A stretch of DNA of 64,000 nt from Sedimentisphaeraceae bacterium JB056. GTDB lineage: Bacteria; Planctomycetota; Phycisphaerae; Sedimentisphaerales; Sedimentisphaeraceae. The notes under the pieces are model-generated. The model saw nothing but the letters and a program-made list of their open reading frames with translations, ran no database searches and was not told where the DNA came from. Position numbers and translations under genes: made by a program. Within the stretch, counting starts at the first letter, position 1. Every line of letters starts with the position of its first letter. The stretch lies in assembly GCA_044440125.1 (NCBI GenBank), contig JBITAJ010000012.1, forward strand, positions 1 through 64,000, written 5' to 3'. Below, piece after piece: positions 20,889-60,190 of this stretch.

Positions 20889-21974
20889 ATGACATCAAAA
20901 GAACGAGTTTTGGCATCCATAAATTTCTCGCAGCCTGATAGAGTACCTGTTGATTTTAGCGCAAATAGATGGGTTTTGGAAAAGCTTTATAAGGCAACAG
21001 GTATTAATGATTACAGCCAACTTTTAAGGCACTATAACGCTGATATTGTGGATTTGCGTGGCATTGTCGACCCCGTCTATAAAGGTCCGGTTCCTTATAT
21101 TGATGTTCAGGAAGATGGCATCCGCCAGAATTTTTGGGGTTGGCGTACAAGAATATGTGAAACTGCTACCGGCCCTGAAGAGATGTATGCTGAATTCATT
21201 TTACAAAATGCTGACCTGACTCAAGTTGAAAATCATCAATGGCCTCAGGTTGACTGGTTTGATTTTGCTGATTTTTCAGAACGGTTAAAACCATGGTCTG
21301 ATTTTGCAATCATGGCAAGCGGTGCGAGTATTTGGCAGCATCCATCTTTCTTGAGAAGTCTTGATCAGCTTCTAATGGATGTTGCTCTTCAAGATGAAGC
21401 TGGAATTTATGTCATAGATAAATTTGTGGAATTTTATACAAATTATTTTGACAAAATGTTTAGCTCTGCACCAAATCAAATACAAATTCTCAGAATAGCA
21501 GACGATATTGGCATGCAGGACAGATTGATATTCAGCCCGTCTCAATTCAACAGCTTTCTTGCACCTCGCTTAAGAAATATTGTTGACATGGCTCATAGCC
21601 ACAACGTGAAGGTAATGTTCCACTCTTGTGGAGCGGTAGAGCCTTTGATTAATAATATCATAGATATAGGTATTGATATTCTTGATCCGTTACAGATAAC
21701 AGCTTCTGGCATGGACCCCGATATATTGAAACAGAAATATGGCAGCAGAATATGTTTACACGGTTCTATTGATACCCAATATTTGCTTCCAAACGGTACT
21801 CCTGAAGATATAATTGAAAATGTCAAAAAAATGATAACGATACTTTCACCGGATGGCGGCTTTATTCTTTCGCCTACACACATACTTCAAAATGATGTCT
21901 CTGTTGAGAATATTGAAGCTCTTTATTCCACTGCCGAGAAATACGGCAGCTATGAAAGTGCTAACTTTGTTTGA
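20889..21974 (+). CDS. Uroporphyrinogen decarboxylase / MtaA-CmuA-like family protein
   Basis: Motifs MTSKERV...PDRVP, ADDIGMQ, FHSCG, DILDPLQ, HGSIDTQ, GGFILSPTH and ENIEA. Confidence 0.85.
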   Translation: MTSKERVLASINFSQPDRVPVDFSANRWVLEKLYKATGINDYSQLLRHYNADIVDLRGIVDPVYKGPVPYIDVQEDGIRQNFWGWRTRICETATGPEEMYAEFILQNADLTQVENHQWPQVDWFDFADFSERLKPWSDFAIMASGASIWQHPSFLRSLDQLLMDVALQDEAGIYVIDKFVEFYTNYFDKMFSSAPNQIQILRIADDIGMQDRLIFSPSQFNSFLAPRLRNIVDMAHSHNVKVMFHSCGAVEPLINNIIDIGIDILDPLQITASGMDPDILKQKYGSRICLHGSIDTQYLLPNGTPEDIIENVKKMITILSPDGGFILSPTHILQNDVSVENIEALYSTAEKYGSYESANFV

Positions 21975-22000
21975 AAGTTAAATTTCTAAGGAGACATCTG

Positions 22001-23104
22001 GTGATAAATGCTAAGCGTTTAGTTTTATATATTTCTGTGGTAACTTTTATTTTGCCGTTTTCAGTAAGTGCTGGGAAAAGTTCAAAGTCTTTTTTTAACT
22101 GGACTAACGATTTAATTCTGCCTCCAGCTTCCGGCCAGTCTGAATCATTAGGTGTTGCAGGTCCATTTGCAGGTGTCAGTAATGATGCATTGATAGTTGC
22201 AGGCGGAGCTAACTTTCCTAAGCCTTATTGGGGCCAAAATAAAACATGGTTCTCTGATATCTGGGTGACTGAAAAAGAAGATTCTGGATATAAATGGTAC
22301 ACAGGCTTTAAGTTGGACCGGCCAATTGCTTACGGCATGACAGTGACAACTCAGTATGGAGTTGTTTGCATGGGTGGTGCAGATGCCAACCAATGTTTTG
22401 CAGATGTTTTTATTCTGAGCTGGGATAAAAATAATAAAAAGATCACAAAAAAAGTTCTACCATCAATGCCTGAAAAATGTGCCTTTGGCAGTGCAACCGT
22501 TATTGGTGATAAAATCTATGTTGCTGGCGGACTAAGCTCAGTAAGACTTGATTCCGCAATGAAAAATTTCTGGTTATTGGATTTGTCTAAAAAAGATACA
22601 GATGGATTTGCGTGGCAAACACTTACCAAGTGGCCAGGTCCTCAGAGAGCATTTAATGTTACTGTCGCTCAACAAAATAAAGACAGTAATTGTGTTTATG
22701 TAATTAGCGGCAGAATGCAAAAAGATCAGACAACTGCATTTTTGAAAGACACCTATGAATATGATCTGATCAGCAATAGCTGGAGAGAATGTGCAAAACT
22801 TCCAACACCAGTTTGTGCTGGAGTTGGTGCGGCAATTGGTCAGAGTGATATATTTCTTTTTGGTGGAGCAGACGGTACACTTTGGGATAAAGTAGACGAT
22901 CTTGGTGATAATCATCCCGGTTTCCCAAAAGATATATGGGCTTATAATACAATTTCAGATACATGGCGCAAAGCAGGTCAGGTACCTCAAACGCATGTTA
23001 CTGCCGCATCTGTTAAATGGAATGGCAAATATTTGATTGTCAGTGGCGAAGTCAGGCCTCTTGTCAGAACTCCCAAAATATTACAAGCAGAACCAATTTT
23101 ATAG
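22001..23104 (+). CDS. Kelch-repeat NanM-like (N-acetylneuraminate mutarotase-type) protein
   Basis: AAGGAG RBS then GTG, signal peptide, GVAGPFAG...VAGGANFP, and repeated GG...W Kelch blades. Confidence 0.8.
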   Translation: MINAKRLVLYISVVTFILPFSVSAGKSSKSFFNWTNDLILPPASGQSESLGVAGPFAGVSNDALIVAGGANFPKPYWGQNKTWFSDIWVTEKEDSGYKWYTGFKLDRPIAYGMTVTTQYGVVCMGGADANQCFADVFILSWDKNNKKITKKVLPSMPEKCAFGSATVIGDKIYVAGGLSSVRLDSAMKNFWLLDLSKKDTDGFAWQTLTKWPGPQRAFNVTVAQQNKDSNCVYVISGRMQKDQTTAFLKDTYEYDLISNSWRECAKLPTPVCAGVGAAIGQSDIFLFGGADGTLWDKVDDLGDNHPGFPKDIWAYNTISDTWRKAGQVPQTHVTAASVKWNGKYLIVSGEVRPLVRTPKILQAEPIL

Positions 23105-23278
23105 TCTGTCTATATAATCATATAAAATTTTAAGAGCCAAAATGTAATTGTTATAGGCCGCAGCAATATGAGATTGTCAGCTAAGATTCCCAGAAATCTT
23201 ATCGAAAATAATCTCTTTACTACGCCGCCTTGTAAAGGGTAAATTATTTTAAGAAGCAAATGAGTCTTTGAAAGGATC

Positions 23279-24804
23279 ATGATGAAGCGTAATATCTTAG
23301 TTTTTTCTATTTTAATTATATGTATTAATTCATTGCTTATTGCAGATGTTAAGCTTCCTGCCATCATTGGTAACAATATGGCATTACAGCAAAAAACAGA
23401 TGCTTGTATATGGGGGTGGGCAGACTCTAATGAGACTGTTTCTATAAAATCAACTTGGCAGTCCTCTACAATTAAAACCAAAGCAGATAGCAATGGCAAA
23501 TGGAAAACTAAGATCAAAACTCCTCAAGCAGGCGGGCCGCATACCCTTACGATAAAGGGAAATAATACGATTGAAATCAAAAATATTATTATCGGAGAAG
23601 TTTGGCTTTGTTCTGGACAGTCGAATATGGAGATGCCGATGAAAGGCTATAATAATCAGCCAGTTGCAAATAGCTCTGAAGAGATAGCAAGTTCTTCTAA
23701 TAAATCTATTCGGCTTTTTAAGGTGGCAAGAAATATTTCTGATGTCCCTGTCGAAGATACAAAAGGTTCATGGGTTGAGTGTACTCCTGATACCGTCAAA
23801 GATTTTAGCGCTACTGGATATTATTTTGGCAGAAAAATTAATAAAGAAACCCAATATCCTGTTGGATTGATTTGCAGTTCATGGGGAGGAACTTTGGCCC
23901 AGGCTTGGACACGTCTTGATTTTATTAAGTACGATGATAATCTAAATCCTGTGATTGGTTATTATAATACAAACCTTGAGAAATGGAAAAAGCATGTCTT
24001 GAAGCTGGATCAGAAAAACCATGTCGTAGAGCTGGGATACGGGCTAATGATGAGTCCGGAGTTCTTTATAACGGAATGATTGCACCTATAACTAATATGA
24101 CAATTCGTGGTACTATTTGGTATCAGGGTGAATCAAATACAAATGATGCATATAGGTATAGAGATCTTTTTCCAACAATGATTGATAATTGGCGATGTGA
24201 TTTCAAGAATTATCAAATGCCGTTTTATTTTGTCCAATTAGCAAGTTTTACGGATCAAAAGCCTGGTCGGCAAGTTGAACCGTACAGAGGACAGCCTCGG
24301 GATCATTCATGGGCAGAATTAAGGGAAGCACAATTTATGACTTCTTTTATGAAAAACAATGGTATGGCAGTTATAATTGACATTGGAGAATCAAACTGCA
24401 TTCATCCTGCCAATAAAAAAGATGTTGGTGAGCGTCTTGCTCTTTGGGCATTGGCTAAAGATTACGGACACGATATTGAATGCTCCGGACCATTATATGC
24501 TGGTTATAAAATCGAAGGCAGAAAAATCAGGGTTATGTTTAGCCATGCACAAAGTGGTCTAATCTTCAAAGATGGAAAGCCAAAGGGATTTGCGATTGCT
24601 GGTGAGGACAAAAAGTTCGTTTGGGCTGATGCACAGATTGATGGTGACACAGTTCTTGTATATAGTGATGCAATTGATACTCCAGTTGCTGTTAGATATG
24701 CTTGGGATGTGGACCCTGAAAATAGCCTTTATAATAAGTCAAATTTGCCAGCGTCACCTTTTAGGACAGATGACTGGAATGGTTTAACTTTTGGTAAAAA
24801 ATGA
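23279..24804 (+). pseudogene. Sialate O-acetylesterase (SASA) split by a frameshift near 23986-23992
   Basis: ORF 23279-24079 has a signal peptide, GEVWLCSGQSNME and WGGT. Overlapping ORF 23983-24804 has LYNGMIAP, WYQGESN, IHPANKKDVGERLA and PASPFRTD. Confidence 0.88.
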
Positions 24805-24928
24805 TATATGGAGATATGATAAGTATCGATACCTCTCAAGTGTTTGTTGTTGATTCTTTATTATATGAGCAATTTGTAAGTATAACTTTTTTAATAACTT
24901 TACAAAAACAACCAGATGGGATATTTTT

Positions 24929-26561: not shown

Positions 26562-26583
26562 TTAATATCCTTTTGTATGATCT

Positions 26584-39303: not shown

Positions 39304-39346
39304 TTTTCTTTCTTTCATAATTTTTAATTTTTTTGTGAAAAAACTC

Positions 39347-39474
39347 TTGATTTTGCGTTCTATCAGTGGTAATCTTGTTTGATGTAACGCCACATCAGTT
39401 TTCAGTATAGCACTAAAATTGCGTTATTCAAGCAAATTTTTATTTTTTTGAAAAAAAGATTTGGCGTTAAATCA
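39347..39474. promoter_or_regulatory. Two LacI-type operators and face-to-face promoters
   Basis: TGATGTAACGCCACATCA (39380-39397) and an inverted copy at 39457-39474 (15/18 identical). Plus promoter TTGATT-N17-TAATCT (39347-39375). Minus promoter TTGAAT-N16-TATACT (39431-39404). Confidence 0.75.
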
Positions 39475-40573: not shown

Positions 40574-40680
40574 TGTAAAAAATATGAACAGTGAGACCTT
40601 TTAATGGTCTTAAAAGAATAATGTAGTATGCCGTGCGTGGCGGTGTATAGAGAGAATAACCAATTATCGGAGGCTAAGTT

Positions 40681-44010: not shown

Positions 44011-44021
44011 CAATCAATCAG

Positions 44022-44059
44022 ACAGGTCGTCAGGAACGGCTGGCGGCCTGTTGCTTTTT
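44022..44059 (+). terminator. Intra-operon stem-loop / terminator
   Basis: ACAGGTCGTCAG/CTGGCGGCCTGT followed by TGCTTTTT. Confidence 0.6.
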
Positions 44060-44092
44060 ATAAAATCAGTTATTATTCAAGGTTTACTTCAA

Positions 44093-45502: not shown

Positions 45503-45559
45503 TTTCCCGGTCAGTACTTCGTATATTAAAGTTGTGAGTTATAATTTATTTTAAGGATT

Positions 45560-47524: not shown

Positions 47525-47552
47525 AGTGTTAAAGATTAAAATGAAGGCGTTT

Positions 47553-49523
47553 ATGATGAAAAGAATTTTAAGTTGTTTGTTTATAATTTCGATTACGGGA
47601 GTTTTAAGTTTTGGTGCAGATGATACTGCAACGAAAAAGTGGCATCAGTGGCGAAAGGCTCGTGATAAATTTCCGATAGCGGCCTGGGCATATTTTGACA
47701 GGTTTGACGGCAGTTATGAGGAATATAAGACTTATGCTGATGCGAATTTGACAATGGTTTCAATTCCTGAGGATATGAGGCATTACGAGAATGCCACCAA
47801 GGCCGGACTTGATGTTATAATCGGAGGCTGGATGTATCTGCATGAAAAGCCCGAAGTGGTAGAAAGACTTTTGAGTTTCCCGTCCACGACGGCAGAGAAT
47901 GTAGCCGGTTATCAACTCAAAGATGAACCCGAGCCTACTATTTTCGAAGGTCTGGCACGTGCGCATCAGATGATTTATGAAAAAGATCAGCGTAATGTTC
48001 TTATTATAACGGATATGCTTCCCGGGTGGGCATGGATGAAAAATACTCGCCGTGCCGAACGGTTTGAAATGAACTATGATGAGATGATAGCTCATTGGAT
48101 AGAAACAGCAAAACCTCCTGTAATAATAAACTGTCATTATGCACCTATGCTTGACGGCAGCGATCGTGATGACATGTATGCCGACAAAGAACTTATGCGT
48201 AAACACGCACTGCTGAATAATATTGGTAATATGTCGTTTATTTCTGCTGCAGCCTATCGTGACTGGTACAGGGTTCCAAGCGAATCAGATTTTTACTGGC
48301 AGGTTTATACATGTCTTGCATATGGTTCAAAGGGGATATGGTATTGGAACTGGAGAATCAAACCGGTTAAGGATGTGTTCTTTGAGGGATTGGTTACATA
48401 TAAGGATGATAAGCCTACCGAGTCGTACGAGTATGTTAAAAATGTAAATGCCGAAGTGTTGGCGTTGGGCGACCTGCTGCTGAAGCTGCGGTCGAGAAAT
48501 GTCTGGCATACCGGCGAGGTGGTACCTCAGGGAACTACGAGGTTTGTGCCTATGCCTGACAGCGGATCATCTGTGATATATGATTTTGTCGGTGATGATT
48601 TTATAGTAAGTGAGTTTGATAATCAGGATGACAGTGCGGATAAGAGTACATATGTTATGTTGGTTAATAAAAGACATGGTGCTGGTAAGCTCAGCAGCGA
48701 TCCATCATTGAAAGCGGAGGCGATATTTAAGCCGGCTGATTATTACGGGTTTGTCTACCATTATCCGCAGAGTGATAAGGCGGTTCTGCTTGAACCGTTT
48801 GAGTATAACGGAGAAAAAGGCTATTATAAAATTTCGCTTGAGGGCGGTAAAGGTGCAATGCTTCGCTTTTCAAGGAAGCCTGTAGATATTTTCATCGCTG
48901 ATAGGCCTCAGCAAAGATTGGAGTTTGCCAGAAGAGTGCCGACTGTTGATGGAGAACTTAACGATGGAATCTGGCAGAAATCCGAGTCGTTGGAATTGAA
49001 AAAGCCTGCCGATAGTGAAGGAACTATTAAAGAATCAGGCTTGGTCAAAGCTGCGTGGCGTGATAACCAGCTTTGGATATGTGCGGATTTTCAAGATAGC
49101 GATATTATTGCTCTCGGTGATGAAAACGGACAGGATCATTACAGGCTCGGCGATTGTCTTGAAATATTCCTTAAACCGGAATATTCAGATTGGTACTGGG
49201 AGATATGGGTAAATCCGAAGGGGAATTATACTACACTCTTCTGGAACAAGAAAGGTGATAAGGCAGCCAAGACTTTTGAGTTTGACGTTGTGTGTAAAAA
49301 AACTGATACCGGATGGTATGTTGAGGCCGAGTTGCCTTTCGATGGATTACTTCAAAATGGCGAACTTCTTAAGCAGGGACAATGGACGATTCTTGCTGCG
49401 AGACAAAATCATACTGGTAAAGTTGATATAAAAACACGGGAGTTATCTTCGTGGCCCGGTTTGACAAAGAGTAATTTTCATTTACTTAATGAGTTTGCTA
49501 AATTGAACTTTGCTCTTTATTGA
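47553..49523 (+). CDS. Secreted putative glycoside hydrolase-like protein with C-terminal CBM9-like domain
   Basis: Signal peptide, GYQLKDEP and YGSKGIWYWNW. The C-terminus has PTVDGELNDGIW...GDCLEIFL...WYVEAELPF. Confidence 0.7.
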   Translation: MMKRILSCLFIISITGVLSFGADDTATKKWHQWRKARDKFPIAAWAYFDRFDGSYEEYKTYADANLTMVSIPEDMRHYENATKAGLDVIIGGWMYLHEKPEVVERLLSFPSTTAENVAGYQLKDEPEPTIFEGLARAHQMIYEKDQRNVLIITDMLPGWAWMKNTRRAERFEMNYDEMIAHWIETAKPPVIINCHYAPMLDGSDRDDMYADKELMRKHALLNNIGNMSFISAAAYRDWYRVPSESDFYWQVYTCLAYGSKGIWYWNWRIKPVKDVFFEGLVTYKDDKPTESYEYVKNVNAEVLALGDLLLKLRSRNVWHTGEVVPQGTTRFVPMPDSGSSVIYDFVGDDFIVSEFDNQDDSADKSTYVMLVNKRHGAGKLSSDPSLKAEAIFKPADYYGFVYHYPQSDKAVLLEPFEYNGEKGYYKISLEGGKGAMLRFSRKPVDIFIADRPQQRLEFARRVPTVDGELNDGIWQKSESLELKKPADSEGTIKESGLVKAAWRDNQLWICADFQDSDIIALGDENGQDHYRLGDCLEIFLKPEYSDWYWEIWVNPKGNYTTLFWNKKGDKAAKTFEFDVVCKKTDTGWYVEAELPFDGLLQNGELLKQGQWTILAARQNHTGKVDIKTRELSSWPGLTKSNFHLLNEFAKLNFALY

Positions 49524-49531
49524 GGTGTTCA

Positions 49532-50164
49532 ATGATCAAAATCAAAGATAACGCAACGATTGTATTTGCCGGTGACAGTATAACTCATGGTTTTTCATCT
49601 ATTGAGGAATATAAACCTTACGGCAAGGGATTTGTTGATTTCGTTGCAAATATACTGTTAGCGCAGAATTATAAAAGTAATCTTAAAATATACAATGCCG
49701 GTATCGGTGGAAATACAACAAGTGAGCTGCTTGAAAGATGGCAGAAAGATGTACTTGATCTGGAGCCGGACATTGTGGTATTGCTTATTGGAGTTAATGA
49801 TGTGCTTCGTAAGTATGAAGAAGACAGGTCTGATGAGAGCGTATCTGTTGATCAATGCCAGAGCAATATAAAATTCATGCTTGATACGCTGGTCAAGAAT
49901 AATGTTCAAGTAGTACTTATGCAGCCGTTTATGTTTGTCAAAGATAATTATGATCAACGATTTTCAGATATATTAAGATATGGTGATAGAATAAAAGAAC
50001 TTGCTGAAAATTATTCCGACATAACTTTTATCCCGATGCAGGAAATCATAACGAAAGAGTTTGAAGATATTGACATGGCTGATGTGAGCTATGATTCAAT
50101 TCATCCGCATCGTTGGGCCCACTGTTGGTTGGGATTGGAATTGTTGAAATATTTTACGAAATAG
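49532..50164 (+). CDS. SGNH/GDSL hydrolase (probable carbohydrate esterase)
   Basis: Motifs GDSIT, NAGIGG, IGVND and DSIHP. GAGGTG RBS. Confidence 0.9.
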   Translation: MIKIKDNATIVFAGDSITHGFSSIEEYKPYGKGFVDFVANILLAQNYKSNLKIYNAGIGGNTTSELLERWQKDVLDLEPDIVVLLIGVNDVLRKYEEDRSDESVSVDQCQSNIKFMLDTLVKNNVQVVLMQPFMFVKDNYDQRFSDILRYGDRIKELAENYSDITFIPMQEIITKEFEDIDMADVSYDSIHPHRWAHCWLGLELLKYFTK

Positions 50165-50190
50165 AACTCAAAGACCAATTGGAGAGATTA

Positions 50191-51945
50191 ATGAATAAAC
50201 GTAGATATATCCTATTATTTATGCTTTTCTTTTGTACTGTTTTGAAAGCAGAAAGTTTTAAGGTAGGTTTTGCCAACTCATTGCAAAAACTGCGAGGCGA
50301 TAGAACAGCAGTTAAAGATGTTGTCTATAAAGATAGCGTTTATCTTGATATGGCAAGAGATGAGAGTGAATCATTTCAGCTTGTAGTTGTGCCTCAGAAT
50401 TCAGAACTGAAAAATATAAAGGTGAACTTGAATCCTGTTATTATGGGAAGCGATAAACTTAAGACCCGCTGGCATATTGTTAATTATGTAAAGACTTCTA
50501 ACCCTTCATATCCAACACCTTATGTTGGCTTGTGGCCCGATGTTCTGATGCCTGCAGCAAACTTTGATGTTGCTGCTGATGAAGTGCAGCCATTATGGTT
50601 CAGCGTCATAAGCGATCCGCAAACTCCTGCAGGAGTGTATAATGGAAGCATAGAGATAAGTGATGGAAAGACGACTGAAATTGTTGAGCTTGTGGTAAAC
50701 GTTCGTAATTTTACAATACCAAGGCCTGGTACACTGGCTACGCCGTTCGGTCTTTATAAATGGACTCTCGAAGAATGGTATTACGGCAAACGAGGTACTC
50801 TGGCCAAGGAAGACTTTATGCGATGGTGTGAGTTTCTCGCGGAGTACAGGTTGACGGTTAAGAATATCGGCTATGAGTATGTTGAGAAAAAATACGCGGA
50901 CGTTGACGGGGAGAAAAAACTTGTCGGTGTGGATATGTCAAAACTCAACCCTGAGCTTAAGAGATTATCCAATGAATATTTTGCACCATACTCTTACGGA
51001 CTTTACCGGCTGCAATCGGGCCCGACAGTTGAAAAAGGGATGGAGGCCCAGGCATCGTGGTGTACGCCTGAAAATATCGCTGCTCCGGTCAAACTTCATT
51101 TTGACCAGTGGCAAAAGCAGGGTTTTAATGATGAGGTATACATTTATGGAGTTGATGAAGCTACTAATGGCGATATGTACGAGTTGATCAAAGATACTTA
51201 TGCTCTCATCAAAAAGGATATTCCGAATTCAAAAATCATGCAGACCGGACTTTGCAATAAGCCGGAAATGGTTGGTTTGATAGATATATGGTGTCCTAAA
51301 AACGAGATAGCATGGGCCCCGTTCTTTCAGGAGCGGCTCAAAGCCGGTGATACTTTATGGATGTATGTGTGCTGTTCGCCGGTGCCGCCGTATCCTAATC
51401 TCCTTGTAGATGAACCGGCGGTGCATCACCGTGTGCTCTTCTGGCAGACAAGGCAGATTGGCGCAACGGGTTTTCTTTACTGGTCAACTCTTTGGCATGC
51501 GGGTATAGAGGACAAGCCATATACGGATAAGCCGGCGTTTCCCGAAAGAATGTGGGATTATGGAGAGTCTAATATGTATTCGGATGTGTGGGTGCATGTC
51601 AATGGCGACGGGTTGTTAGTTTATCCGGGTAAGAACCTTACCCCGCTGCCTTCAATCAGGCTTGAAATTGTGCGTGACGGTATAGAAGACTACGAATATA
51701 TGGTGATACTTGAAAAACTTGTCGCTGAAGTAAGTGCACTGGAAAAATATCAAACTAAAGGGACTGCTTCACTTATCGCAAGAGCAAAAGAGCTTTCACA
51801 GGTGCCGGATTTTATTTCGAGCAGCGCCCTCAAGTATACTGAAGAGCCTCTGGTTCTTTTCGAAAGACGTCGCGAGATTGCGGATATGATCGAACAGTTC
51901 AAAGATATTCTTGAAAATAAAGACTACACAAACTGGAAGATGTAA
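50191..51945 (+). CDS. Secreted DUF4091 / GH123-like glycoside hydrolase
   Basis: Motifs ARDESESFQL, WPDVL, YGVDE, DIWCP, WMYVC, GFLYW, GDGLLVYP and SIRLEIVRDGIEDYEY. Confidence 0.8.
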   Translation: MNKRRYILLFMLFFCTVLKAESFKVGFANSLQKLRGDRTAVKDVVYKDSVYLDMARDESESFQLVVVPQNSELKNIKVNLNPVIMGSDKLKTRWHIVNYVKTSNPSYPTPYVGLWPDVLMPAANFDVAADEVQPLWFSVISDPQTPAGVYNGSIEISDGKTTEIVELVVNVRNFTIPRPGTLATPFGLYKWTLEEWYYGKRGTLAKEDFMRWCEFLAEYRLTVKNIGYEYVEKKYADVDGEKKLVGVDMSKLNPELKRLSNEYFAPYSYGLYRLQSGPTVEKGMEAQASWCTPENIAAPVKLHFDQWQKQGFNDEVYIYGVDEATNGDMYELIKDTYALIKKDIPNSKIMQTGLCNKPEMVGLIDIWCPKNEIAWAPFFQERLKAGDTLWMYVCCSPVPPYPNLLVDEPAVHHRVLFWQTRQIGATGFLYWSTLWHAGIEDKPYTDKPAFPERMWDYGESNMYSDVWVHVNGDGLLVYPGKNLTPLPSIRLEIVRDGIEDYEYMVILEKLVAEVSALEKYQTKGTASLIARAKELSQVPDFISSSALKYTEEPLVLFERRREIADMIEQFKDILENKDYTNWKM

Positions 51946-52982
51946 TGCAGATAAAAAGACTAAATAGAGAACAGGTGCGCGCAGCGATAAAATTTCAGTC
52001 GCCCTCAAGACCTCCTATCGCCCATGCTCTGACTTTTGAACCGGAATTATGGGCGAAGTATCCGGAGCAGCTTGACCGTATCAAAAGAGATTATCCCGAT
52101 GATATATCTTTTCACAATGTACATGTTGACTACTGGCAGGCTCCGGTGGATAAGCCATTTTATCGATGGGCCTTTGGCGGTAAGCAGAAACCGGCCGGTA
52201 CTGCTATAGACAGCTGCCCGGTGATAGAAGACTGGAATGATCTGGATCAGTTTATAAGTGAAATGCCGTCGCCTTTGGATGATAAGCCTTACGACGAAGT
52301 AAGACGGCTTGCCAATCAAAATCCTGACGATTATATATTGATTAGCTTTGGACATTATTTCAATCAGAAGTTTGCTTCCTTTCGAGGTATTGAAAATCTT
52401 TTGATGGATTTTTATGACAGTAAACATGAATTGCAAAGACTTCTTGAAGCGATTCTCGGTTATTACCAGGTGCTTGCCGAGCGCGTTGCCAAAGCCGGGG
52501 CTAACGGGATTTATGGCGGTGAAGATTTGGGTACGCAGAGAAGCTTGTTTATGTCGCCGCAAATTTTTCGTGAGGTATATAAACCATATTACATTCGCTT
52601 TGCCGAGATACTCCATGCTAACGGACTTGATTTTTGGCTGCATAGTTGCGGTAATATCACTGAGATAATACCTGATCTGATAGAGGCCGGTGTTGATGTA
52701 CTGCATCCGATACAGGTTGGTACGATGGATGATGAGCAGATAGTCAAAGATTATTCCGGTAAGATTTGTTTCCATGTAGGTATGGATGTTCAGAATCTTA
52801 TACCTTTTGCTACCGTGCAGGAAGTACGTGAGGGAATACGAAAGCGGGCCTTCAATTTCTATCGTCCTGACGGCGGTGTTATTTATGCTGCCGGAAATGT
52901 CATAACCGATGGTACGCCGCTGGAGAATATCGAAGCTTACGCACAAGAGCTGTTTTATTTTGTGGAGGCGCACACAAAATGA
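51945..52982 (+). CDS. UROD / MtaA-CmuA-like family protein
   Basis: Motifs RGIENLLMD, EDLGTQ, LHSCG, DVLHPIQ, GMDVQ and PLENI. Confidence 0.85.
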   Translation: MQIKRLNREQVRAAIKFQSPSRPPIAHALTFEPELWAKYPEQLDRIKRDYPDDISFHNVHVDYWQAPVDKPFYRWAFGGKQKPAGTAIDSCPVIEDWNDLDQFISEMPSPLDDKPYDEVRRLANQNPDDYILISFGHYFNQKFASFRGIENLLMDFYDSKHELQRLLEAILGYYQVLAERVAKAGANGIYGGEDLGTQRSLFMSPQIFREVYKPYYIRFAEILHANGLDFWLHSCGNITEIIPDLIEAGVDVLHPIQVGTMDDEQIVKDYSGKICFHVGMDVQNLIPFATVQEVREGIRKRAFNFYRPDGGVIYAAGNVITDGTPLENIEAYAQELFYFVEAHTK

Positions 52983-54205
52983 CATCAAGGGAACGGGTTT
53001 TACGAAGTATAGAATTCAAGAGTGTGGACAGGCTTGCCAAGGACCTTGGCGGTATGGCATCGACGGGAATAAGTGCGTTCGCTTATCCGAGGCTTGTCGA
53101 AAAGCTTGGACTTGCCTATCGCAGGCCAAAAGTTCATGATGTAGGTCAGATGCTGGCTATGCCGGATATGGATGTTCTCGATGCGTTGGGTTGTGATGTG
53201 GTAACGGTTTTTCATGGCGTGACCAACGCTTTTGAACAGGATGAGAAATGGCACGATTATGATTTTGGAGGCAGGCTCAAGGCAAAGATTCGTGATGCCT
53301 CTATGTTTGAAGTTTTATCTGACGGTACGATTGAATGTAAAACTCAAAAGTCAAAAATGCCTCCCGCTTCGACCGTTTTCGATACCGAACACGGCGGCCA
53401 GTCTGTATGTCTTTCCGGAGATATACCCAAACCAGATCTTGATCAGTTGCGGGAGCAGTTGAATAAGAGTTTCCCTTCCGAGTCGCAAATAGAGGAGACT
53501 GCTTCTCTTTGCCGAATGGTAAGACAAAGTACCGATAAGGCGGTCTTTTTTAACGGCCCGATTTACAGCGGACTTGGTATATGCTCTTTCGGCGGGATGG
53601 GTATTTTCCCGATGCTGTGTATGCTCGAACCTGAGTTCGTCAAAGAGTTGCATGGTATTATTGCTGATAACGCGACCACTATAATACATAAAATGCTTCC
53701 TGCCATAAAGAATGATATTGATATTTTATTGTTCGGTTCCGATGACTGGGGTACGCAGAATTCTCTTATCGCTCCGCCGGAGGTTTACAGGGAATTGTTT
53801 CTGCCGTTCCTCAAGCGAATGAACAGCGAGATAAAATCTATAGCTCCCGATCTTAAAATATTTCTGCATAGCTGCGGCAATATAATTGATATACTGCCGA
53901 TGATAATCGAAGCAGGGTTTGATGTGCTCAATCCCGTGCAATGGTCAACGACCGGTCAAGGCAGTTATGTTAAGTGGAAAGAAAAGACTCACGGCCGCAT
54001 CGCGTTATGGGGCGGCGGGGTAAATTCCCAGCATACTCTTCCTTTGGGAACAGTGGATGATATAGAACGTCAGGTAAGAGAAACCGTAAAATGTTTCTCT
54101 GATGGCAGCGGTTATATATTTGCTAACACACATAATATATTGTCAGAGATAGAACCCGAAAAAATAACGGCTATGTATAAAACGGCTGAAGAAATTAAGA
54201 TTTAA
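52979..54205 (+). CDS. UROD / MtaA-CmuA-like family protein
   Basis: Motifs MTSRERV, DDWGTQ, LHSCG, DVLNPVQ, WGGGVNSQ and THNI. Confidence 0.85.
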   Translation: MTSRERVLRSIEFKSVDRLAKDLGGMASTGISAFAYPRLVEKLGLAYRRPKVHDVGQMLAMPDMDVLDALGCDVVTVFHGVTNAFEQDEKWHDYDFGGRLKAKIRDASMFEVLSDGTIECKTQKSKMPPASTVFDTEHGGQSVCLSGDIPKPDLDQLREQLNKSFPSESQIEETASLCRMVRQSTDKAVFFNGPIYSGLGICSFGGMGIFPMLCMLEPEFVKELHGIIADNATTIIHKMLPAIKNDIDILLFGSDDWGTQNSLIAPPEVYRELFLPFLKRMNSEIKSIAPDLKIFLHSCGNIIDILPMIIEAGFDVLNPVQWSTTGQGSYVKWKEKTHGRIALWGGGVNSQHTLPLGTVDDIERQVRETVKCFSDGSGYIFANTHNILSEIEPEKITAMYKTAEEIKI

Positions 54206-54225
54206 AATTGTTAAGAGGCTTTAAG

Positions 54226-55353
54226 ATGACAAACAGAGAAAGATTATTGACAGTACTTAGAGGCGATATACCCGACTGCGTACCGGTATGTCCCGACATA
54301 TCGAATATGATTCCCTGCCGCCTTACGGGCAAGCCGTATTGGGATGTTTATCTCAAGAACAATCCTCCGCTCTGGAAGGCTCATATAAATGCATTGAAAT
54401 ATTTCAACCTCGACGGTGGGTTTGAGATGTATCGTTATCCCGACCCGCTCGGTGATGCTCCGAAATATGAAACAAGAATACTCAAACGTGAAGACGGCAA
54501 AATCATAACGAGGGATTATTACACTGAGAAGCAGGAATGGGCAAAATATCTCTGGGTTTATTATGAGAATGAGGCGCCCGCTGCTTATGTCAAACCTGCA
54601 ACAGTAGGGCTGCCCGAGGTGCCGCAACAATGGGAGCAAATAGATAATCCTGTAGAGTGGCCTGATGGAATGGAGCTGTGGCGTATCATACGAAAAGAGA
54701 TGGGAGAGCAGGGATTGATGGGTATGCCTTCGGGTATGCATACGTGTTTGCTTAACACTGCCGATGATGTGTATGAGTATTATGATAATCCCGGCAAGTA
54801 TCACAAGATGGCCGAGGATATGCTTGCACTTTCACTGAGCAGGATCGAGAGGATATCCAAGTTTCCAGTAGAGGATCGTCCGGACTTTATTGCCTGTGGA
54901 GCATCCGGTTCGCTTGTTCTTCAGACGCCCACAATATTCAGGGAGCTGATCTTGCCGATGCTCAAAGAGGTAACCAAAGCGGCAAAGAATATCGGTCTGC
55001 CCACACAGGTTCATTCCTGTGGCCCTGAGACGGCACTTGTCAAAATGGCCGCCGAAGAGACCGACCTTACTGTAATAGATCCACTTGAGATTGCTCCGAT
55101 GGGAGACTGTACGCTTGCGGACCTCAAGAAAGAGTTTGGCGACAAGATCGTTCTCAAAGGCAATCTTCATACTACTGACGTAATGCTTTACGGCAGCGTG
55201 CAGGAAGTTAAGGACGCGGCAAAGAAGGCGATTGATGACGCGGCAGAAGGTGGACGTTTTATCCTGTCCACCGGCGACCAGTGCGGCAGGGACACACCTT
55301 TCGAAAATATCGAGGCGATGGTGGAAGTAGCCAGAACATACGGCAAATATTAA
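54226..55353 (+). CDS. UROD / MtaA-CmuA-like family protein
   Basis: Motifs MTNRERL...PDCVP, VHSCG, IDPLE, LKGNL and FILSTGDQCGRDTPFENI. Confidence 0.85.
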   Translation: MTNRERLLTVLRGDIPDCVPVCPDISNMIPCRLTGKPYWDVYLKNNPPLWKAHINALKYFNLDGGFEMYRYPDPLGDAPKYETRILKREDGKIITRDYYTEKQEWAKYLWVYYENEAPAAYVKPATVGLPEVPQQWEQIDNPVEWPDGMELWRIIRKEMGEQGLMGMPSGMHTCLLNTADDVYEYYDNPGKYHKMAEDMLALSLSRIERISKFPVEDRPDFIACGASGSLVLQTPTIFRELILPMLKEVTKAAKNIGLPTQVHSCGPETALVKMAAEETDLTVIDPLEIAPMGDCTLADLKKEFGDKIVLKGNLHTTDVMLYGSVQEVKDAAKKAIDDAAEGGRFILSTGDQCGRDTPFENIEAMVEVARTYGKY

Positions 55354-55368
55354 ATGAAAGAGGTGTAA

Positions 55369-57168
55369 ATGAATAAGCTGCTGTTTAATTTCATAACCAT
55401 AGTAATGATCAGTACGAGTTGTTTGCAGGCTTCGTATAAAATTGCTTATGCCGATTCCATGACTAAGATCCGTATGGAGAAAGAGTATGCATCCGATCTT
55501 CCGATCGTTTCGGATATTGATGTTGATATGGCGGCTAATGAAAGTGAATCTTTCCAGCTTGTCATAATACCCGACGACTCAAATATTGAAGAAGTGTTTG
55601 TCAACTTTGAGAATACGACTTTTGATGCCGATGAACTGGCTATTGAATATTTCAAGGTCGGCTATGTGAAAACCGGTAAGCCGAAAAAGTACGATCCGTT
55701 ATATGTCGGTTACTGGCCGGACAGACTTATGCCCGTTGACACCTTTGATGTCAAAAGTGAAAATGTTGCGGTTTTGTGGTTTAAGATTACCACTAATAAA
55801 AATATACGCAGGGGCAGTTATAAAACTGATATAAGGATAACGAGTGCCCGGCAGAGCGATCTTGTAGAGTTGAATGTTAAGGTGAGAGATTTTGTCATAC
55901 CTGAAAAGGGAACATTTGCGGCTCCGTTCGGATTGTATCTGCCGTATATTTCTAAATGGTATTTTTCTGACGAAGATTATATAGGCAACATTACTCCCGA
56001 GCAATACGGTCAAATGTGCGAATCGCTTTACGAATACCGGCTTACTCCCAAGAATATAGGCTATGAATATGTTCACAGAAAAATCGGCGACCAAGTGCTG
56101 CCGCAAGCCGGAGCTAATGCCGGCCGGATCTTTGTTCATAAGGATATGAGCAAACCGATCAGTGTTGATATGGAGAGCCTGCAAAAGACCATCGGTCGGC
56201 TTGGCGATCAATTCCCGGATTATTCGTATGGAATCTATCGTTTGCCGCCGTATGAAGAGCTGCTTAAAGACGCCGATATTACTAACGGTCAACGAGATAC
56301 TTCCAGAGAAAATCTTGACAATTTGGTTCTGCCGGCTCTCGCCCATATAAAAGAATGGAAGAAGCAGAACTTGTCTTCGGTCGGATATATCTACGGGGTT
56401 GATGAGCCGCGGGAGTTTCATTTGGGTTTTTTGAAGGAGCTTTATACGAAGATCAAGGCCGAATTACCGGATGTGAAAATTCTGCAGGTGATTTCAACGG
56501 GAGACCCAAGCAAACTTGAAGGTTTGGTTGATATCTGGTGCCCATTGACAATCTTGCTCCATAGGGAATACGATTTTTTCCAGAAACGAGTTGCGGCAGG
56601 CGACATGCTTTGGACGTATGTCTGCTGCTGGCCTGAACCGCCGTTTGCAAACTTTTTCATTGATGAACCAGGTATAGATCACAGGGCATTGTTCTGGCAG
56701 GCTCAAAAGGCCGGAGCTACAGGGCTTCTATACTGGAGTGTTGCGTGGTTCGAAGGGCTTGAGGAACTTAAAGCTCCCGATGGGATAACCCTCAAAGAGC
56801 CTGTCGATATGACCAAGCACGAGATGTATGGCCGATCTAAAGTAAACGGTGACGGTTTGCTCTTGTATCCCGCTGAAAATTTTCAATTCAATCCGTCGAT
56901 ACGTCTTGAAATAATAAAAGACGGCATTGAAGACTGTGAATATTTTTCCCTTCTGAAAGCGTTGGTTCAGGAAGTAGAAAATATAAAAAGTCTTGATCAG
57001 GAAGATGCGGCCCGTCTTTCTCAGGCGAGGAAACTTATTGCCGTGCCTGATGATATAGTTGAAGATATGATTAATCATACTTCCCGTTCTAATGATATAA
57101 CAGATCATCGAAGAAAAATAGCCGATGCAATCGAAAGCTTAATGAAGATAAAAGAAAAGAGAAAGTAA
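55369..57168 (+). CDS. Secreted DUF4091 / GH123-like glycoside hydrolase (paralog of 50191)
   Basis: Motifs ANESESFQL, YGVDEP, DIWCP, WTYVC, GLLYW, NGDGLLLYP and SIRLEIIKDGIED. Confidence 0.8.
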   Translation: MNKLLFNFITIVMISTSCLQASYKIAYADSMTKIRMEKEYASDLPIVSDIDVDMAANESESFQLVIIPDDSNIEEVFVNFENTTFDADELAIEYFKVGYVKTGKPKKYDPLYVGYWPDRLMPVDTFDVKSENVAVLWFKITTNKNIRRGSYKTDIRITSARQSDLVELNVKVRDFVIPEKGTFAAPFGLYLPYISKWYFSDEDYIGNITPEQYGQMCESLYEYRLTPKNIGYEYVHRKIGDQVLPQAGANAGRIFVHKDMSKPISVDMESLQKTIGRLGDQFPDYSYGIYRLPPYEELLKDADITNGQRDTSRENLDNLVLPALAHIKEWKKQNLSSVGYIYGVDEPREFHLGFLKELYTKIKAELPDVKILQVISTGDPSKLEGLVDIWCPLTILLHREYDFFQKRVAAGDMLWTYVCCWPEPPFANFFIDEPGIDHRALFWQAQKAGATGLLYWSVAWFEGLEELKAPDGITLKEPVDMTKHEMYGRSKVNGDGLLLYPAENFQFNPSIRLEIIKDGIEDCEYFSLLKALVQEVENIKSLDQEDAARLSQARKLIAVPDDIVEDMINHTSRSNDITDHRRKIADAIESLMKIKEKRK

Positions 57169-57169
57169 T

Positions 57170-59161
57170 ATGGATTTTAACGCAGGATTAACTGATAGAT
57201 TTTCTACGGGCTGTAACTACTGGGCTTCACATGCCGGGTTGTTTATGTGGAGCAGATGGGACGAGGCAATAGTTGAGGCAGACTTTAAGCTTCTAAGCGA
57301 AAAGGGGCTGAAGACTTTGCGGGTCTTTCCGCTCTGGCCCGATTTTCAGCCGCTCAACGTTCTTTACGGCGAGTTTGGAGCGGCCAAGGAAGTTCGCCGC
57401 GGCGAGAGAAGACTTGATAGTTCGAGTCCTGAATCAGTTGCCTGTGTTGATCCTATTATGGTAGATCGTTTTGAGAAAATGTGCGAGCTGGCCGGAGAGT
57501 ATGGCCTTGAGCTTACCGTTATGCTGCTCACCGGCTGGATGAGCGGCAGACAGTTCAAGCCTGCTCCTCTCAATGACCGCAACATATATTCCAATCCGTT
57601 CGCCCTTAAGTGGCAGGTTCGGTTCGTGAAATATTTTGTGGAAAGGTTCAGGTCGCACAAGTGTATTGTGGGCTGGGGGCTTGGCAACGAGAGCAATATA
57701 ATGAGTACCTGTGATGACCCTGATACCGCTTATAGCTGGACGGCTCTTATATCCAACACGATCAAGGCCGCCGATCCTGAGCGGCCGGTAATTTCCGGAA
57801 TGCACGGACTCAGCGTTGACGGCAGCGGGCTGGGTTGGAAGATATCCGATCAGGGGGAACTTGTTGATATCGTTACAACCCATCCCTATGCCTTGTTTGT
57901 TAAACATCTTGATGGTGATAAGCTGCTAAGCATAAGAAATACAATGCATATTGCTGCGGAGTCAACGCTTTATTCCGATCTTACCGGCAAGCCGTGTATG
58001 AGCGAGGAACTTGGTGATCTTGGGACCAATCTTCTTGATCCACAATCCTCAAAAACGTTTCTAAATACTTGTCTTTTATCAGGTTGGGCTAATAATAACC
58101 TTGGTCTTTTATGGTGGTGTGCTTTTGAGCAGCGGCATCTTGACGATGCTCCTTACGATTGGTTTGCTTTTGAACAGGAGCTTGGTATTTTTAGTGCCGA
58201 TGGTAAGCCTAAGCCTACTTATTCAGCTTTTGAGAATTTTCACTCATTCCTCAGTTCTTTGCCGCCTCAGTTGCGAAAGCTTCCGCCGCGAAAACGCGAT
58301 GCCGTTTGCCTTCTCAGCAGAGGGCAGGATAACTGGGCTGCCGCTTTATCAACTTTTGTCCTTGCTAAACAGGCAGGTTTTGACGTACAGTTTGTTACAG
58401 AGGAGAATATACTTCCCGATGCTGAACTATATATGCTGCCGTCACTTTGCGGTTATGGTCCGGTATCTAAGTTTATGTATAAACAATTGCTTGATAAAGT
58501 GGAAGCTGGTGCAAGCTTATATATAAGCTCTTTTGATGCTTTACTGCCTAATCTCAGTGAGTATGCAGGTGTGAAAGTGATTTCAAGGAGTAAGTGGAAT
58601 TGTGAAGGCAGTATCAAGCTTGACGATGGTACCTCTATTAGACTGCCTGATGAGATGACCATGCAGCAGTGGCATAGAGAGGGCGGCTTCTTTGCTGATG
58701 CCAGCCAGTATTCTCTTGAACTGGAACCGGTTGGAGCTGAAGTGCTTGCAGATGATGAGAACGGTAATCCTATTTTAACTTGTAATAAATACGGCAAAGG
58801 TTTTGTATATTTCCTTAACTTTGGATTGGAAGTTATACTTGCCAAGACGTCTTTTGCTTTTGAAAACAATATGGACGATTTCTTTAAGCTTTATCAAAAA
58901 ATAAGTGGTAAGGCTTTGTCGCAAAGAGCTGCTCTTAAGAGTGAAAATCAGAAAGGACTGGCTATCTCAGAGTTTGTTATTAATGAGGAAGTGGTATGCG
59001 TAGGCGTTAACCACTATTGCTGTAAGATTGAAGGAAAACTTGACTTGCAGAACGATTTTAAGCTGGTTAAGTCTTTTGGTGGCGAGGTTAAGTCTTTTGG
59101 TGACAGGTGTTTATCTTACAGGCTGGATAAAGGGAAGGCTTTTGTTGCGATTTTAAGTTGA
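57170..59161 (+). CDS. Cytoplasmic clan GH-A glycoside hydrolase (GH5/GH42-like)
   Basis: GCNYWASHAG, LRVFPLW, acid/base WGLGNE, putative nucleophile SEELG, and LWWCAF, with a C-terminal GH42-like accessory domain. Confidence 0.8.
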   Translation: MDFNAGLTDRFSTGCNYWASHAGLFMWSRWDEAIVEADFKLLSEKGLKTLRVFPLWPDFQPLNVLYGEFGAAKEVRRGERRLDSSSPESVACVDPIMVDRFEKMCELAGEYGLELTVMLLTGWMSGRQFKPAPLNDRNIYSNPFALKWQVRFVKYFVERFRSHKCIVGWGLGNESNIMSTCDDPDTAYSWTALISNTIKAADPERPVISGMHGLSVDGSGLGWKISDQGELVDIVTTHPYALFVKHLDGDKLLSIRNTMHIAAESTLYSDLTGKPCMSEELGDLGTNLLDPQSSKTFLNTCLLSGWANNNLGLLWWCAFEQRHLDDAPYDWFAFEQELGIFSADGKPKPTYSAFENFHSFLSSLPPQLRKLPPRKRDAVCLLSRGQDNWAAALSTFVLAKQAGFDVQFVTEENILPDAELYMLPSLCGYGPVSKFMYKQLLDKVEAGASLYISSFDALLPNLSEYAGVKVISRSKWNCEGSIKLDDGTSIRLPDEMTMQQWHREGGFFADASQYSLELEPVGAEVLADDENGNPILTCNKYGKGFVYFLNFGLEVILAKTSFAFENNMDDFFKLYQKISGKALSQRAALKSENQKGLAISEFVINEEVVCVGVNHYCCKIEGKLDLQNDFKLVKSFGGEVKSFGDRCLSYRLDKGKAFVAILS

Positions 59162-59185
59162 AAAATAAAATCAGCCTAAAACTTT

Positions 59186-60190
59186 TTATTGGACTGAGTC
59201 GCAGAAAGCCTCAAATACCTCATCTGGCACATCTGCGGGTATCTCACAGCCGGCACTGAGCATATAGCTTGTATCTTTTGCTTTTTGAATACAAGACTTT
59301 GCCTTTTGGGCACAAACCTGCGGTGTTGCCTGTAGAATATCAGCTACCGGATCGAGATTGCCCTTGAAGCATTTGCCGGCTTTGCCGTAAACACAGCAGG
59401 CTGTATCAAAGTCAACCATATGATCAACATTGAAAAGATCGGCGTCAGTTTTTACCATATCCTCAAGCAAAGCAGAGGTATTGCCGCATATATGGAGTTT
59501 TACAAGTCCGCCGGCGTTGTGTACCGCCTGAATAACACGCTTCTCATACGGCAGTGCGAATTCACGATACATCTCCGGAGAGATTAAGGATGCCGCTGCA
59601 TCTCCGGCACCGACCATATGCGCTCCGCTTTCAATTTGCAGTAATGCAAAATCAATAACTATATCGGTGAGAAATTCGAGGGTCGTATGAACAAGTTGCT
59701 GATTTTCGTAAGTCAGCATTAGAAGCTCACTTACGCCACATATCGAGCATGATTCGGCAAAAGGCATATCTACCCAGCCGGCTACCATACATCTGTCACC
59801 AATATTTTTTGACAGACACTCAACAGCTTTAGCCCTGTCGTACATTCTCGACGAAGCATTGGAAACATCAGGTCGTTTGAGAGAATTCAAATCCTGCAGA
59901 TTTCTCACCAAGGGAGCGGCAAGATGGGGTGGATGCTCTTCCGGGAAAACCATTTCTCCGCCAAGATCAGCCGATACCCTGAATGCATCCGAGCAGGCCG
60001 TTACTGCATCGACATTGAATTTTTCAAAAATGTTTAACTGAGATTGCGCAAGTACTTGTGCATCACTTGCAAACTGCCTGTAAGATGCGCCGATTCTTTT
60101 GGCTGCAAAACTCATCAAAAGTGGAAATACCGGCGTTCTGTCGACCTTTTTCCCTGCGATACTGTTCAAACATCTTTGCTTGGAGTTCAT
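59186..60190 (-). CDS. UROD / MtaA-CmuA-like methyltransferase-family protein
   Basis: Motifs DRTPVFP, GDAAASLISP, LHICG, KGNLDP and LSAGCEIP. Retains a full His-x-Cys...Cys zinc ligand set. Confidence 0.87.
   Translation of the reverse strand: MNSKQRCLNSIAGKKVDRTPVFPLLMSFAAKRIGASYRQFASDAQVLAQSQLNIFEKFNVDAVTACSDAFRVSADLGGEMVFPEEHPPHLAAPLVRNLQDLNSLKRPDVSNASSRMYDRAKAVECLSKNIGDRCMVAGWVDMPFAESCSICGVSELLMLTYENQQLVHTTLEFLTDIVIDFALLQIESGAHMVGAGDAAASLISPEMYREFALPYEKRVIQAVHNAGGLVKLHICGNTSALLEDMVKTDADLFNVDHMVDFDTACCVYGKAGKCFKGNLDPVADILQATPQVCAQKAKSCIQKAKDTSYMLSAGCEIPADVPDEVFEAFCDSVQ

Follow-up and report, generated by a model that had tools for sequence, protein, structure and literature searches.

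The first 64,000 nucleotides (nt) of contig JBITAJ010000012.1 of Sedimentisphaeraceae bacterium JB056 (hereafter the window) contain six genes whose products have the fold of uroporphyrinogen decarboxylase (URO-D, PF01208) and which lie among genes for glycan use. With moderate confidence, we consider these proteins, paralogs 1 to 6, to be substrate-specific corrinoid methyltransferases of the methyltransferase 1 type (MT1) of the UroD superfamily, which demethylate O-methyl sugars anaerobically and many of which share one carrier. The first-pass annotation of the window had proposed an undescribed family of cytoplasmic sugar-processing metalloenzymes with no link to haem and no corrinoid partners, and had named anaerobic O-demethylation of methylated sugars or a corrinoid-independent reaction as examples. 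This was borne out in part: the cytoplasmic location, the tie to glycan loci and the separation from haem synthesis held, and O-demethylation is the reading favoured by the evidence described here, while the absence of partners and the novelty of the family did not hold.

All six genes are intact open reading frames (ORFs) at the places previously given, and all exceed the Pfam cut-off for URO-D (52.5–240.6 bits against 23.9). Paralog 6 covers the full PF01208 profile with 240.6 bits; the other five match its C-terminal half only, with 52.5–74 bits. The nearest NCBIfam model was of the MtaA/CmuA type for all six, every score lying below the curated cut-off. On TIGR01463 (MtaA/CmuA), 28.3–158.2 bits were reached (cut-off 235.4), the best by paralog 6. 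A six-way alignment agreed with the motifs described before: H245, C247 and G248 are invariant and form H-[S/I]-C-G, and the distal residue is His in paralogs 1, 2 and 4 and Asn in paralog 3, while an aligned Cys is confined to paralog 6 and the Cys of paralog 5 is shifted. In MtaA, the zinc site consists of H-x-C and a distal Cys. As identity to paralog 1 among the six is 20–28%, they are old paralogs and not recent duplicates. Paralogs 3, 4 and 5 stand in tandem with gaps of -4 and +2 nt and are flanked by two genes with GH123_cat matches. PF13320 (GH123_cat) is the former DUF4091, and the tandem arrangement between two DUF4091 genes was thus confirmed. None of the six proteins has a signal-like N-terminus; many neighbours carry one (BNR_2, NanM-like, SASA, CBM96, CBM9 and the second GH123-like protein). 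This and the tight operon spacing with glycan genes agree with cytoplasmic proteins set in glycan loci.

Table 1. Paralogs and neighbouring genes of the window (plain positions) and candidate partner genes elsewhere in the genome (contig:positions).
Feature	Position	Strand	Remarks
Paralog 1, URO-D fold	20889-21974	+	361 amino acids (aa); HSCG...PTH; URO-D 74 bits; stop overlaps NanM-like start
Paralog 2, URO-D fold	39506-40573	+	355 aa; HSCG...PSH; first gene of 39506-59161 operon; divergent from LacI gene
Paralog 3, URO-D fold	51945-52982	+	345 aa; HSCG...AGN
Paralog 4, URO-D fold	52979-54205	+	408 aa; HSCG...NTH
Paralog 5, URO-D fold	54208-55353	+	381 aa from TTG start; HSCG...GDQC
Paralog 6, URO-D fold	59186-60190	-	334 aa; HICG...AGCE; MtaA-like, Cys-type zinc motif
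BNR_2 sialidase-like gene and SSF symporter	13430-16498	+	Upstream of paralog 1; BNR_2 protein with signal-like N-terminus
NanM-like Kelch propeller, then SASA gene as two overlapping ORFs	21971-24804	+	NanM-like start overlaps paralog 1 stop
LacI-family regulator	38254-39393	-	Divergent from paralog 2
CBM96 protein, unknown protein (483 aa), SSF symporter, CBM9 protein, GDSL esterase, GH123-like	40681-51945	+	Between paralogs 2 and 3
GH123-like gene 1	50113-51945	+	GH123_cat (PF13320) match
GH123-like gene 2 (55369-57168) and GH2-like TIM-barrel protein	55369-59161	+	GH123_cat match (55369-57168); operon end
Corrinoid protein, MtaC/MtgC type	C3:13828-14451		207 aa; B12-binding_2 and B12-binding domains; DxHxxG motif
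RACo/RamA-type activase	C9:66855-68738		627 aa, full-length; Fer2, RACo_linker, Raco_middle, RACo_C_ter
Methyl-tetrahydrofolate:corrinoid methyltransferase-like	C20:30666-31676		336 aa; weak match: Pterin_bind 33 bits, PRK07535 92 bits (cut-off 259)
MtaA-like barrel fused to thioredoxin-like (HUIPC-type) domain, with adjacent CobW-type GTPase	C12:217761-220067		Window's contig, about 155 kb downstream

The claim that corrinoid partners are missing held for the window and not for the genome (4.54 Mb in 33 contigs, 99.77% complete), which encodes a corrinoid protein, RACo and the fusion of an MtaA-like barrel with a thioredoxin-like domain (MtaA-Trx) beside CobW. Of the partners for which a genome search had been advised, the corrinoid protein and the RACo/RamA-type activase were found, and the match to a folate-dependent methyltransferase 2 (MT2) was weak. 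Matches to B12-binding, RACo and Pterin_bind fell on contigs C3, C6, C15, C16, C9, C11 and C20, and four of the matches were to B12-binding. The corrinoid protein of C3 scored 197 bits on TIGR02370 (cut-off 215), 204 on MtgC and 141 on metH. A second small B12-binding protein (C6:27321-27965, 214 aa) is weakly CarH-like, is encoded directly upstream of a histidine kinase and may be a B12-based sensor. As acetyl-CoA synthase gave no match in the genome, RACo does not serve a Wood-Ljungdahl pathway. The strong Pterin_bind match is dihydropteroate synthase (DHPS). Beside the weakly matching C20 gene lies a fusion of homocysteine S-methyltransferase and methylenetetrahydrofolate reductase (MTHFR) with 672 bits against a cut-off of 453. 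The barrel of MtaA-Trx carries F-V-C-G instead of H-x-C-G.

Relatives of the paralogs were found beside corrinoid-protein genes in other genomes. The search with MtaA-Trx gave 243 confirmed relatives, and gene counts were made on the best 80 loci (42–65% identity, many phyla). CobW was present in 62 of these 80, a corrinoid protein in 29, a MetH-activation-like gene in 19 and RACo in eight, and the clustered ORFs included 28 further URO-D genes. In eight loci, a URO-D gene (339–352 aa), the carrier, MtaA-Trx, CobW and the MetH-activation-like gene lie on one strand, followed in slightly varying order by genes for a P450, ferredoxin, ferredoxin reductase, zinc alcohol dehydrogenase (ADH), (GH2) and esterase, with an AraC gene divergently upstream in most. 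They come from marine Bacteroidota and belong to Maribacter, five Lutibacter, Mariniflexile and one Bacteroidota metagenome-assembled genome (MAG). The Lutibacter P450 reached 617 bits on the PDB entries 6G5O/6G5Q and the ADH 645 and 594 bits on 8H2A and 8H2B. According to the available parts of the sources, these are P450ZoGa and FoADH/ZoADH of the 6-O-methyl-galactose demethylation cluster, the P450 being that of Zobellia (PMC6292453, PMC10033563). The URO-D gene which opens these operons is 60–63% identical to a paralog of JB056 itself (C22:156211-157227) and carries IHSCGD...PSH, the His-type site of window paralogs 1, 2 and 4. The order of URO-D gene, carrier and fusion was also seen with other URO-D subfamilies (loci L213, L216, L227, L231 and L233). 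One Sphaerochaetaceae cluster holds sugar genes, two divergent URO-D genes, PocR-AraC regulators, RACo, carrier, fusion and CobW together; on this chromosome, PocR-AraC regulators flank the RACo and corrinoid-protein genes (L164:6231-10191).

By BLAST, each window paralog is 26–35% identical, over alignments of 250–436 residues, to the product of a URO-D gene that has a corrinoid-protein gene one or two genes away. Paralog 2 shares 51% identity with a URO-D protein in a locus with MtaA-Trx and CobW of a Lentisphaerales MAG (L170). A midpoint-rooted tree (FastTree, LG+gamma) was built from the 45 paralogs of the genome, 31 URO-D proteins of module loci and one fusion barrel. Carrier-adjacent URO-D genes interleave throughout this tree, and those flanking a carrier gene in L213, L227, L231 and L233 fall into clades with paralogs 1, 4 and 6. 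Paralog 1 groups with a Puteibacter gene (support 0.91), paralog 4 with the L227 gene, which directly flanks a corrinoid-protein gene (0.985), and paralog 6 with the genes of L231 and L233 (0.99). Paralog 2 joins the clade of the methyl-galactose operons weakly (0.565), as does paralog 3 the clade of the carrier-adjacent L216 gene (0.37). For paralog 5, no close carrier-adjacent relative was found among the module-locus URO-D genes by BLAST or in the tree.

Paralog 1 was modelled with AlphaFold2 from a 40-sequence alignment with a mean predicted local distance difference test score (pLDDT) of 93.2. With this model, Foldseek placed MtaA first (4ay7, E 3.3e-14, template modelling (TM) score 0.64–0.68), followed by URODs and then MetE, and the only sequence matches of paralog 1 in the PDB were MtaA (E 2.8e-6) and CdmB (E 2.2e-4). 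The N-terminal half of the model contains a beta-rich insert. Residues invariant in the orthogroup of paralog 1 include H245, C247, H331, Q269, D205 and D206. When paralog 1 was modelled together with the C3 carrier, interface scores (ipSAE) of 0.78, 0.80 and 0.76 were obtained, while the best of three controls reached 0.00; of solved complexes, 116 of 157 pass the mark applied to such models, as do 2 of 215 mismatched pairs. The runs share at least 95% of their contacts, and the partner has a pLDDT of 86. In the predicted interface, the carrier contributes its B12 face with the DxHxxG loop (100-106) and residues 148-150 and 176-178. Residues 158-167, 209-219 and 297 of paralog 1 ring the barrel mouth near D205, D206 and Q210. 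The model supports docking of paralog 1 onto the carrier.

The family extends well beyond the six genes of the window, with a total of about 45 paralogs dispersed across the genome. PF01208 gave 47 matches, and a profile made from the six found 48 ORFs in a crude ORF set, 45 of them at E<=1e-14 and three weak. For the 39 paralogs that lie elsewhere in the genome, the ORFs within three genes were surveyed. Of these 204 ORFs, 195 were annotated and the other nine lay outside the fetched regions; the following counts were read manually from the resulting table and refer to a distance of up to three ORFs. A glycoside hydrolase, polysaccharide lyase, carbohydrate esterase, sulfatase or LamG gene was near 17 of the 39, an SSF or sugar-MFS transporter near ten, and an AraC, LacI or GntR regulator near 18. 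At least one of these three classes was seen for 29 paralogs, and the remaining ten stand in unrelated contexts. Across the 45 paralogs, the motif sets comprise H-x-C, H-x-D, H-x-H and D-x-D with a distal His, Cys, Asn or Asp. The closest relative of paralog 3 within the genome (C21:64699-65775, 47% identity) likewise adjoins a GH123 gene; a neighbourhood search with paralog 3 gave three loci from 66 pattern matches, too few for use. At C5:33978-38905, URO-D paralogs are flanked by AraC regulators that carry a PocR sensory domain. At C18:18710-23830, a 384-aa paralog of weak URO-D likeness and without an NCBIfam match adjoins FolD and formate-tetrahydrofolate ligase genes, with an AraC gene on the opposite side.

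Corrinoid partners accompany the family in other genomes as well. Of 151 sampled genomes of the phylum, 22 were classed as expanded, i.e. with at least 15 first-look URO-D candidates (15–75 in these genomes), a threshold set after the data had been seen. RACo was present in all 22 expanded genomes and in 30 of the 129 others, and 20 of the 22 had one or two B12-binding_2 matches, those listed lying mostly in frames of 210–283 aa. On these counts, a combination of many enzymes with one or two carriers seems general. Five of five complete genomes with a paralog-1 ortholog have a small carrier (frames of 209–224 aa) and RACo, to which two of the five add a full MetH. RACo was found in 44 of 50 further genomes with such an ortholog, which were picked before any result from 80 paralog-1 loci and represent mostly the longer ones. 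The six genomes without RACo all have B12-binding_2, in frames of 183–225 aa in G157, G178, G184 and G201 and only in frames of 300–354 aa in G164 and G192; of these, G164, G178 and G201 also encode an MtaA-Trx fusion with at least 550 bits. The Phycisphaerae isolate Poriferisphaera, which has a paralog-1 ortholog, carries on its chromosome a methanol-type set of MtaB, URO-D, corrinoid protein, AraC, DUF1638 and RACo genes (L163, 2066135-2073208).

In the proposed pathway, exported glycosidases, esterases and sulfatases would cut the decorated glycan extracellularly, and SSF symporters would bring in the pieces. Each paralog would bind one kind of O-methylated sugar at its metal site (H-x-C with a distal His, Cys or Asn) and offer the methyl ether to Co(I) of the C3 carrier. 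The cobalt would take the methyl group and the freed sugar hydroxyl would permit ordinary catabolism. The methyl-Co(III) carrier would then be unloaded by an MT2, for which MtaA-Trx with CobW, the 336-aa protein of C20 and the homocysteine S-methyltransferase/MTHFR fusion are candidates, and the methyl group would pass to a thiol acceptor, folate or homocysteine. Oxidised carrier would be re-reduced by RACo. We tentatively extend this to a hub-and-spoke network, in which dozens of locus-specific URO-D MT1 enzymes would load one shared corrinoid protein that also feeds methionine synthesis and the one-carbon pool; this wider scheme we hold with less confidence than sugar demethylation by the six. 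Its substrates may include methylated sugars of the sialic- or ulosonic-acid type, and paralog 1 is a candidate MT1 in a locus of the sialic-acid type.

Several observations weigh against corrinoid-dependent sugar demethylation. The six proteins stay under every NCBIfam cut-off, and the window scan for B12-binding, RACo and Pterin_bind gave no match. A single carrier serving about 45 enzymes would depart from the known systems, where the carrier gene adjoins that of its MT1. As neither MetE nor MetH was found in the genome, the carrier, RACo, the methyl-tetrahydrofolate-type protein and the homocysteine methyltransferase may constitute a split methionine synthase, which is the main rival account for the presence of carrier and activase. 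The complex model may owe its pass to likeness with known families. Among the expanded genomes, G048 (91% complete) and G074 (86% complete) gave no B12-binding_2 match, and the co-occurrence counts are confounded by kinship and anaerobic lifestyle. MtaA-Trx was detected in 5 of the 151 phylum genomes (E<=1e-90, at most 11 candidates scored per genome), and it was rejected as a universal partner of the expansions on this count. Paralog 1 has 475 confirmed relatives in a species-level genome collection, with orthologs of 50–60% identity in many phyla, and in the best 80 loci (40–59% identity; Planctomycetota, Verrucomicrobiota, Kiritimatiellales, Lentisphaerae, Anaerolineae, Spirochaetota, Bacillota, Bacteroidales and others) not one corrinoid-protein, CobW, RACo or MetH-activation-like gene was found within the fetched flanks, many of these loci being short. 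The commonest neighbour was a BNR_2 sialidase-like protein (41 of 80, mostly directly upstream), followed by a DHDPS/NanA-like lyase (33, mostly directly downstream), an unknown 388-aa protein (16), an RraA-like protein (12), NanM-SSF fusions (8) and GntR regulators (8). By these conserved neighbours and the count of zero in 80, paralog 1 is placed in a catabolic module of the sialic- or ulosonic-acid type whose link to B12 is not visible locally.

The same neighbours would fit enzymes which use the URO-D barrel for a corrinoid-independent reaction on sugars, e.g. the removal of another decoration by a Zn or Fe hydrolase, lyase or decarboxylase, the carrier and RACo then serving only the split methionine synthase. 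The varied ligand sets of the 45 paralogs fit Lewis-acid chemistry of several kinds, and a carrier is needed for methionine synthesis anyway if MetE and MetH are missing. We nevertheless regard this as unlikely. The well-supported clades tie paralogs 1, 4 and 6 to carrier-flanking URO-D genes, the His-type site HSCG...PSH recurs in the gene at the MT1 position of the corrinoid/P450 operons, the complex model favours docking on the carrier, and RACo co-occurs with the family even where a full MetH is present. The corrinoid-independent reaction named in the first-pass annotation is thus the weaker alternative, since corrinoid protein, RACo and MtaA-Trx/CobW are encoded in the same genome; it stays alive chiefly for paralog 1, with its lack of local corrinoid genes, and for paralog 5. 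Still less probable, in our judgement, are corrinoid-dependent MT1 or MT2 enzymes for donors other than sugars (methoxylated aromatics, methylated thiols or selenides, methanol-derived), which would be placed in glycan loci by co-regulation only. The characterised MT1 enzymes of the UroD superfamily all act on aryl methyl ethers, haloalkanes or thiols as far as the available parts of two sources go (PMC13222342, PMC10418091), the H-x-C...C site of paralog 6 is of the thiol type seen in MtaA, and the Poriferisphaera genome pairs a URO-D gene with MtaB. Such donors are hard to reconcile with genes inside operons for sugar symporters and glycosidases, with a corrinoid module joined to the operon of a characterised methyl-galactose demethylase, and with the sugar-type regulators close to 18 of the 39 other paralogs.

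That at least one of the six is the uroporphyrinogen decarboxylase HemE of the cell can practically be dismissed. The Pfam family name and the barrel fold of the six are shared with HemE, and paralog 6 aligns full-length with solved URODs (best 6w2o at E 2.6e-18). On the hemE equivalog TIGR01464, however, paralog 6 as the best reached 107.9 bits against a cut-off of 302.95, the others 16.8 bits at most or no match, and the best PF01208 score of the genome (240.6 bits) is far from the approx. 340–450 bits of true HemE in the phylum sample. The six differ from HemE also in their metal-ligand motif. ALAD, ferrochelatase and CbiC gave no match in the genome, while the same searches were positive in 11, 8 and 6 of 14 control genomes, respectively; there would thus be no uroporphyrinogen for a decarboxylase. 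HemE identity was ruled out on these grounds, in line with the first-pass annotation. Judged by gene content, the host cannot make haem or B12, and B12 must be imported. Two cobalamin riboswitches were found in the genome (C16:56581-56774 and C1:29544-29737). Downstream of one of them are genes for an unknown protein of 357 aa, a DUF4465/PEP-CTERM protein and a prepilin-type protein, and the other precedes an unannotated gene run; both riboswitch-led gene sets may be B12 uptake systems.

The gene spacing of -52 to 107 nt suggests one transcription unit from 39506 to 59161, headed by paralog 2. A search of sequencing runs for the part at 50113-57168 listed no RNA run, and four runs of one study, of DNA or unknown type, contained about 0.47 of the sampled words. 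Within this unit, the earliest in-frame ATG of paralog 5 is at 54226. Altogether, the glycan genes of the window comprise two GH123-like, one GH2 and one GH2-like gene, CBM96, CBM9, LamG, a GDSL esterase, the BNR sialidase-like, NanM-like and SASA genes and three SSF symporters. The two SASA (sialate O-acetylesterase) ORFs (23279-24079 and 23983-24804) match the first and second part of the Pfam profile, so that the split is a frameshift or sequencing error. A single 629-aa ORF at 6676-8565 fuses an amino-acid permease to an EIIA-2 domain of the phosphotransferase system (PTS), an unusual fusion of transporter and regulator.

Among known systems, the three-component corrinoid O-demethylases and dehalogenases are the nearest, with a UroD-superfamily TIM-barrel MT1, an MtaC-type carrier with a DxHxxG motif and a RACo/RamA-type activase. 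They act on aryl methyl ethers or haloalkanes and not on carbohydrates, and they form compact operons, each with its own carrier. In JB056, by contrast, the MT1-like genes number about 45 and are scattered in glycan loci; the genome has a single carrier and a single activase, these are not accompanied by a canonical folate MT2, and the sequence similarity of paralog 1 to corrinoid MT1 enzymes is remote. Adjacency of MT1, carrier, MT2 and activase is absent in the window; it was seen with relatives of three paralogs (1, 4 and 6) and with C22:156211 orthologs only. MtaA/MtbA/MtsA (4AY7) are the best structural match of the paralog-1 model and have H-x-C in common with the six, paralog 6 sharing also the distal Cys. 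The six differ from them in their sub-cut-off TIGR01463 scores, in the replaced or shifted distal Cys of five of the six and, for paralog 1, in the beta-rich N-terminal insert; as a further contrast with MtaA, to our knowledge a bacterium like JB056 would not be expected to metabolise coenzyme M. The P450 6-O-methyl-D-galactose demethylase (P450ZoGa/CYP236A with ferredoxin, reductase, ADH and esterase) achieves the same net removal of a sugar O-methyl group as proposed here, and in eight loci it shares one operon with the corrinoid module and orthologs of a JB056 paralog. It needs oxygen, releases formaldehyde and has an unrelated fold.

An undescribed family, as proposed at first, is too strong a term. 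The UroD superfamily already holds OdmB, VdmB, MtvB, MtoB and CdmB according to the available parts of the literature (PMC13222342, PMC10418091), which also describe MT1 enzymes with and without zinc and 26 paralogous systems in Acetobacterium dehalogenans (PMC13222342). Mlp clusters are assigned to methyl-sulfur and methyl-selenium metabolism, with no mention of sugar or carbohydrate in the available part of that source (PMC10418091). MT1 enzymes of this superfamily are well known to use aryl methyl ethers and haloalkanes; no description of a sugar demethylase of the corrinoid or URO-D type was found. A full-text literature search, covering journals outside subscription, gave no paper tying URO-D-family or corrinoid proteins to carbohydrate demethylation. 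In the available part of a 2025 study on porphyran use by gut Bacteroides, the demethylation of methyl-galactose by anaerobes "has not been elucidated yet" (PMC12316285).

The JB056 genome and the corrinoid/P450 operons supply named candidate genes for anaerobic sugar demethylation. Methyl ethers block sugar catabolism, and the only characterised sugar demethylase known to us requires oxygen. If the proposal is correct, the six paralogs and their relatives would do without oxygen what the P450 methyl-sugar demethylase does with it and would so fill a gap; under anoxia, growth on methylated glycans is predicted to depend on B12 and on one carrier protein. Thousands of database entries named "uroporphyrinogen decarboxylase" or "MtaA" would then be reassigned, and B12 supply would be a point at which the degradation of methylated polysaccharides is controlled in anoxic sediments and guts.

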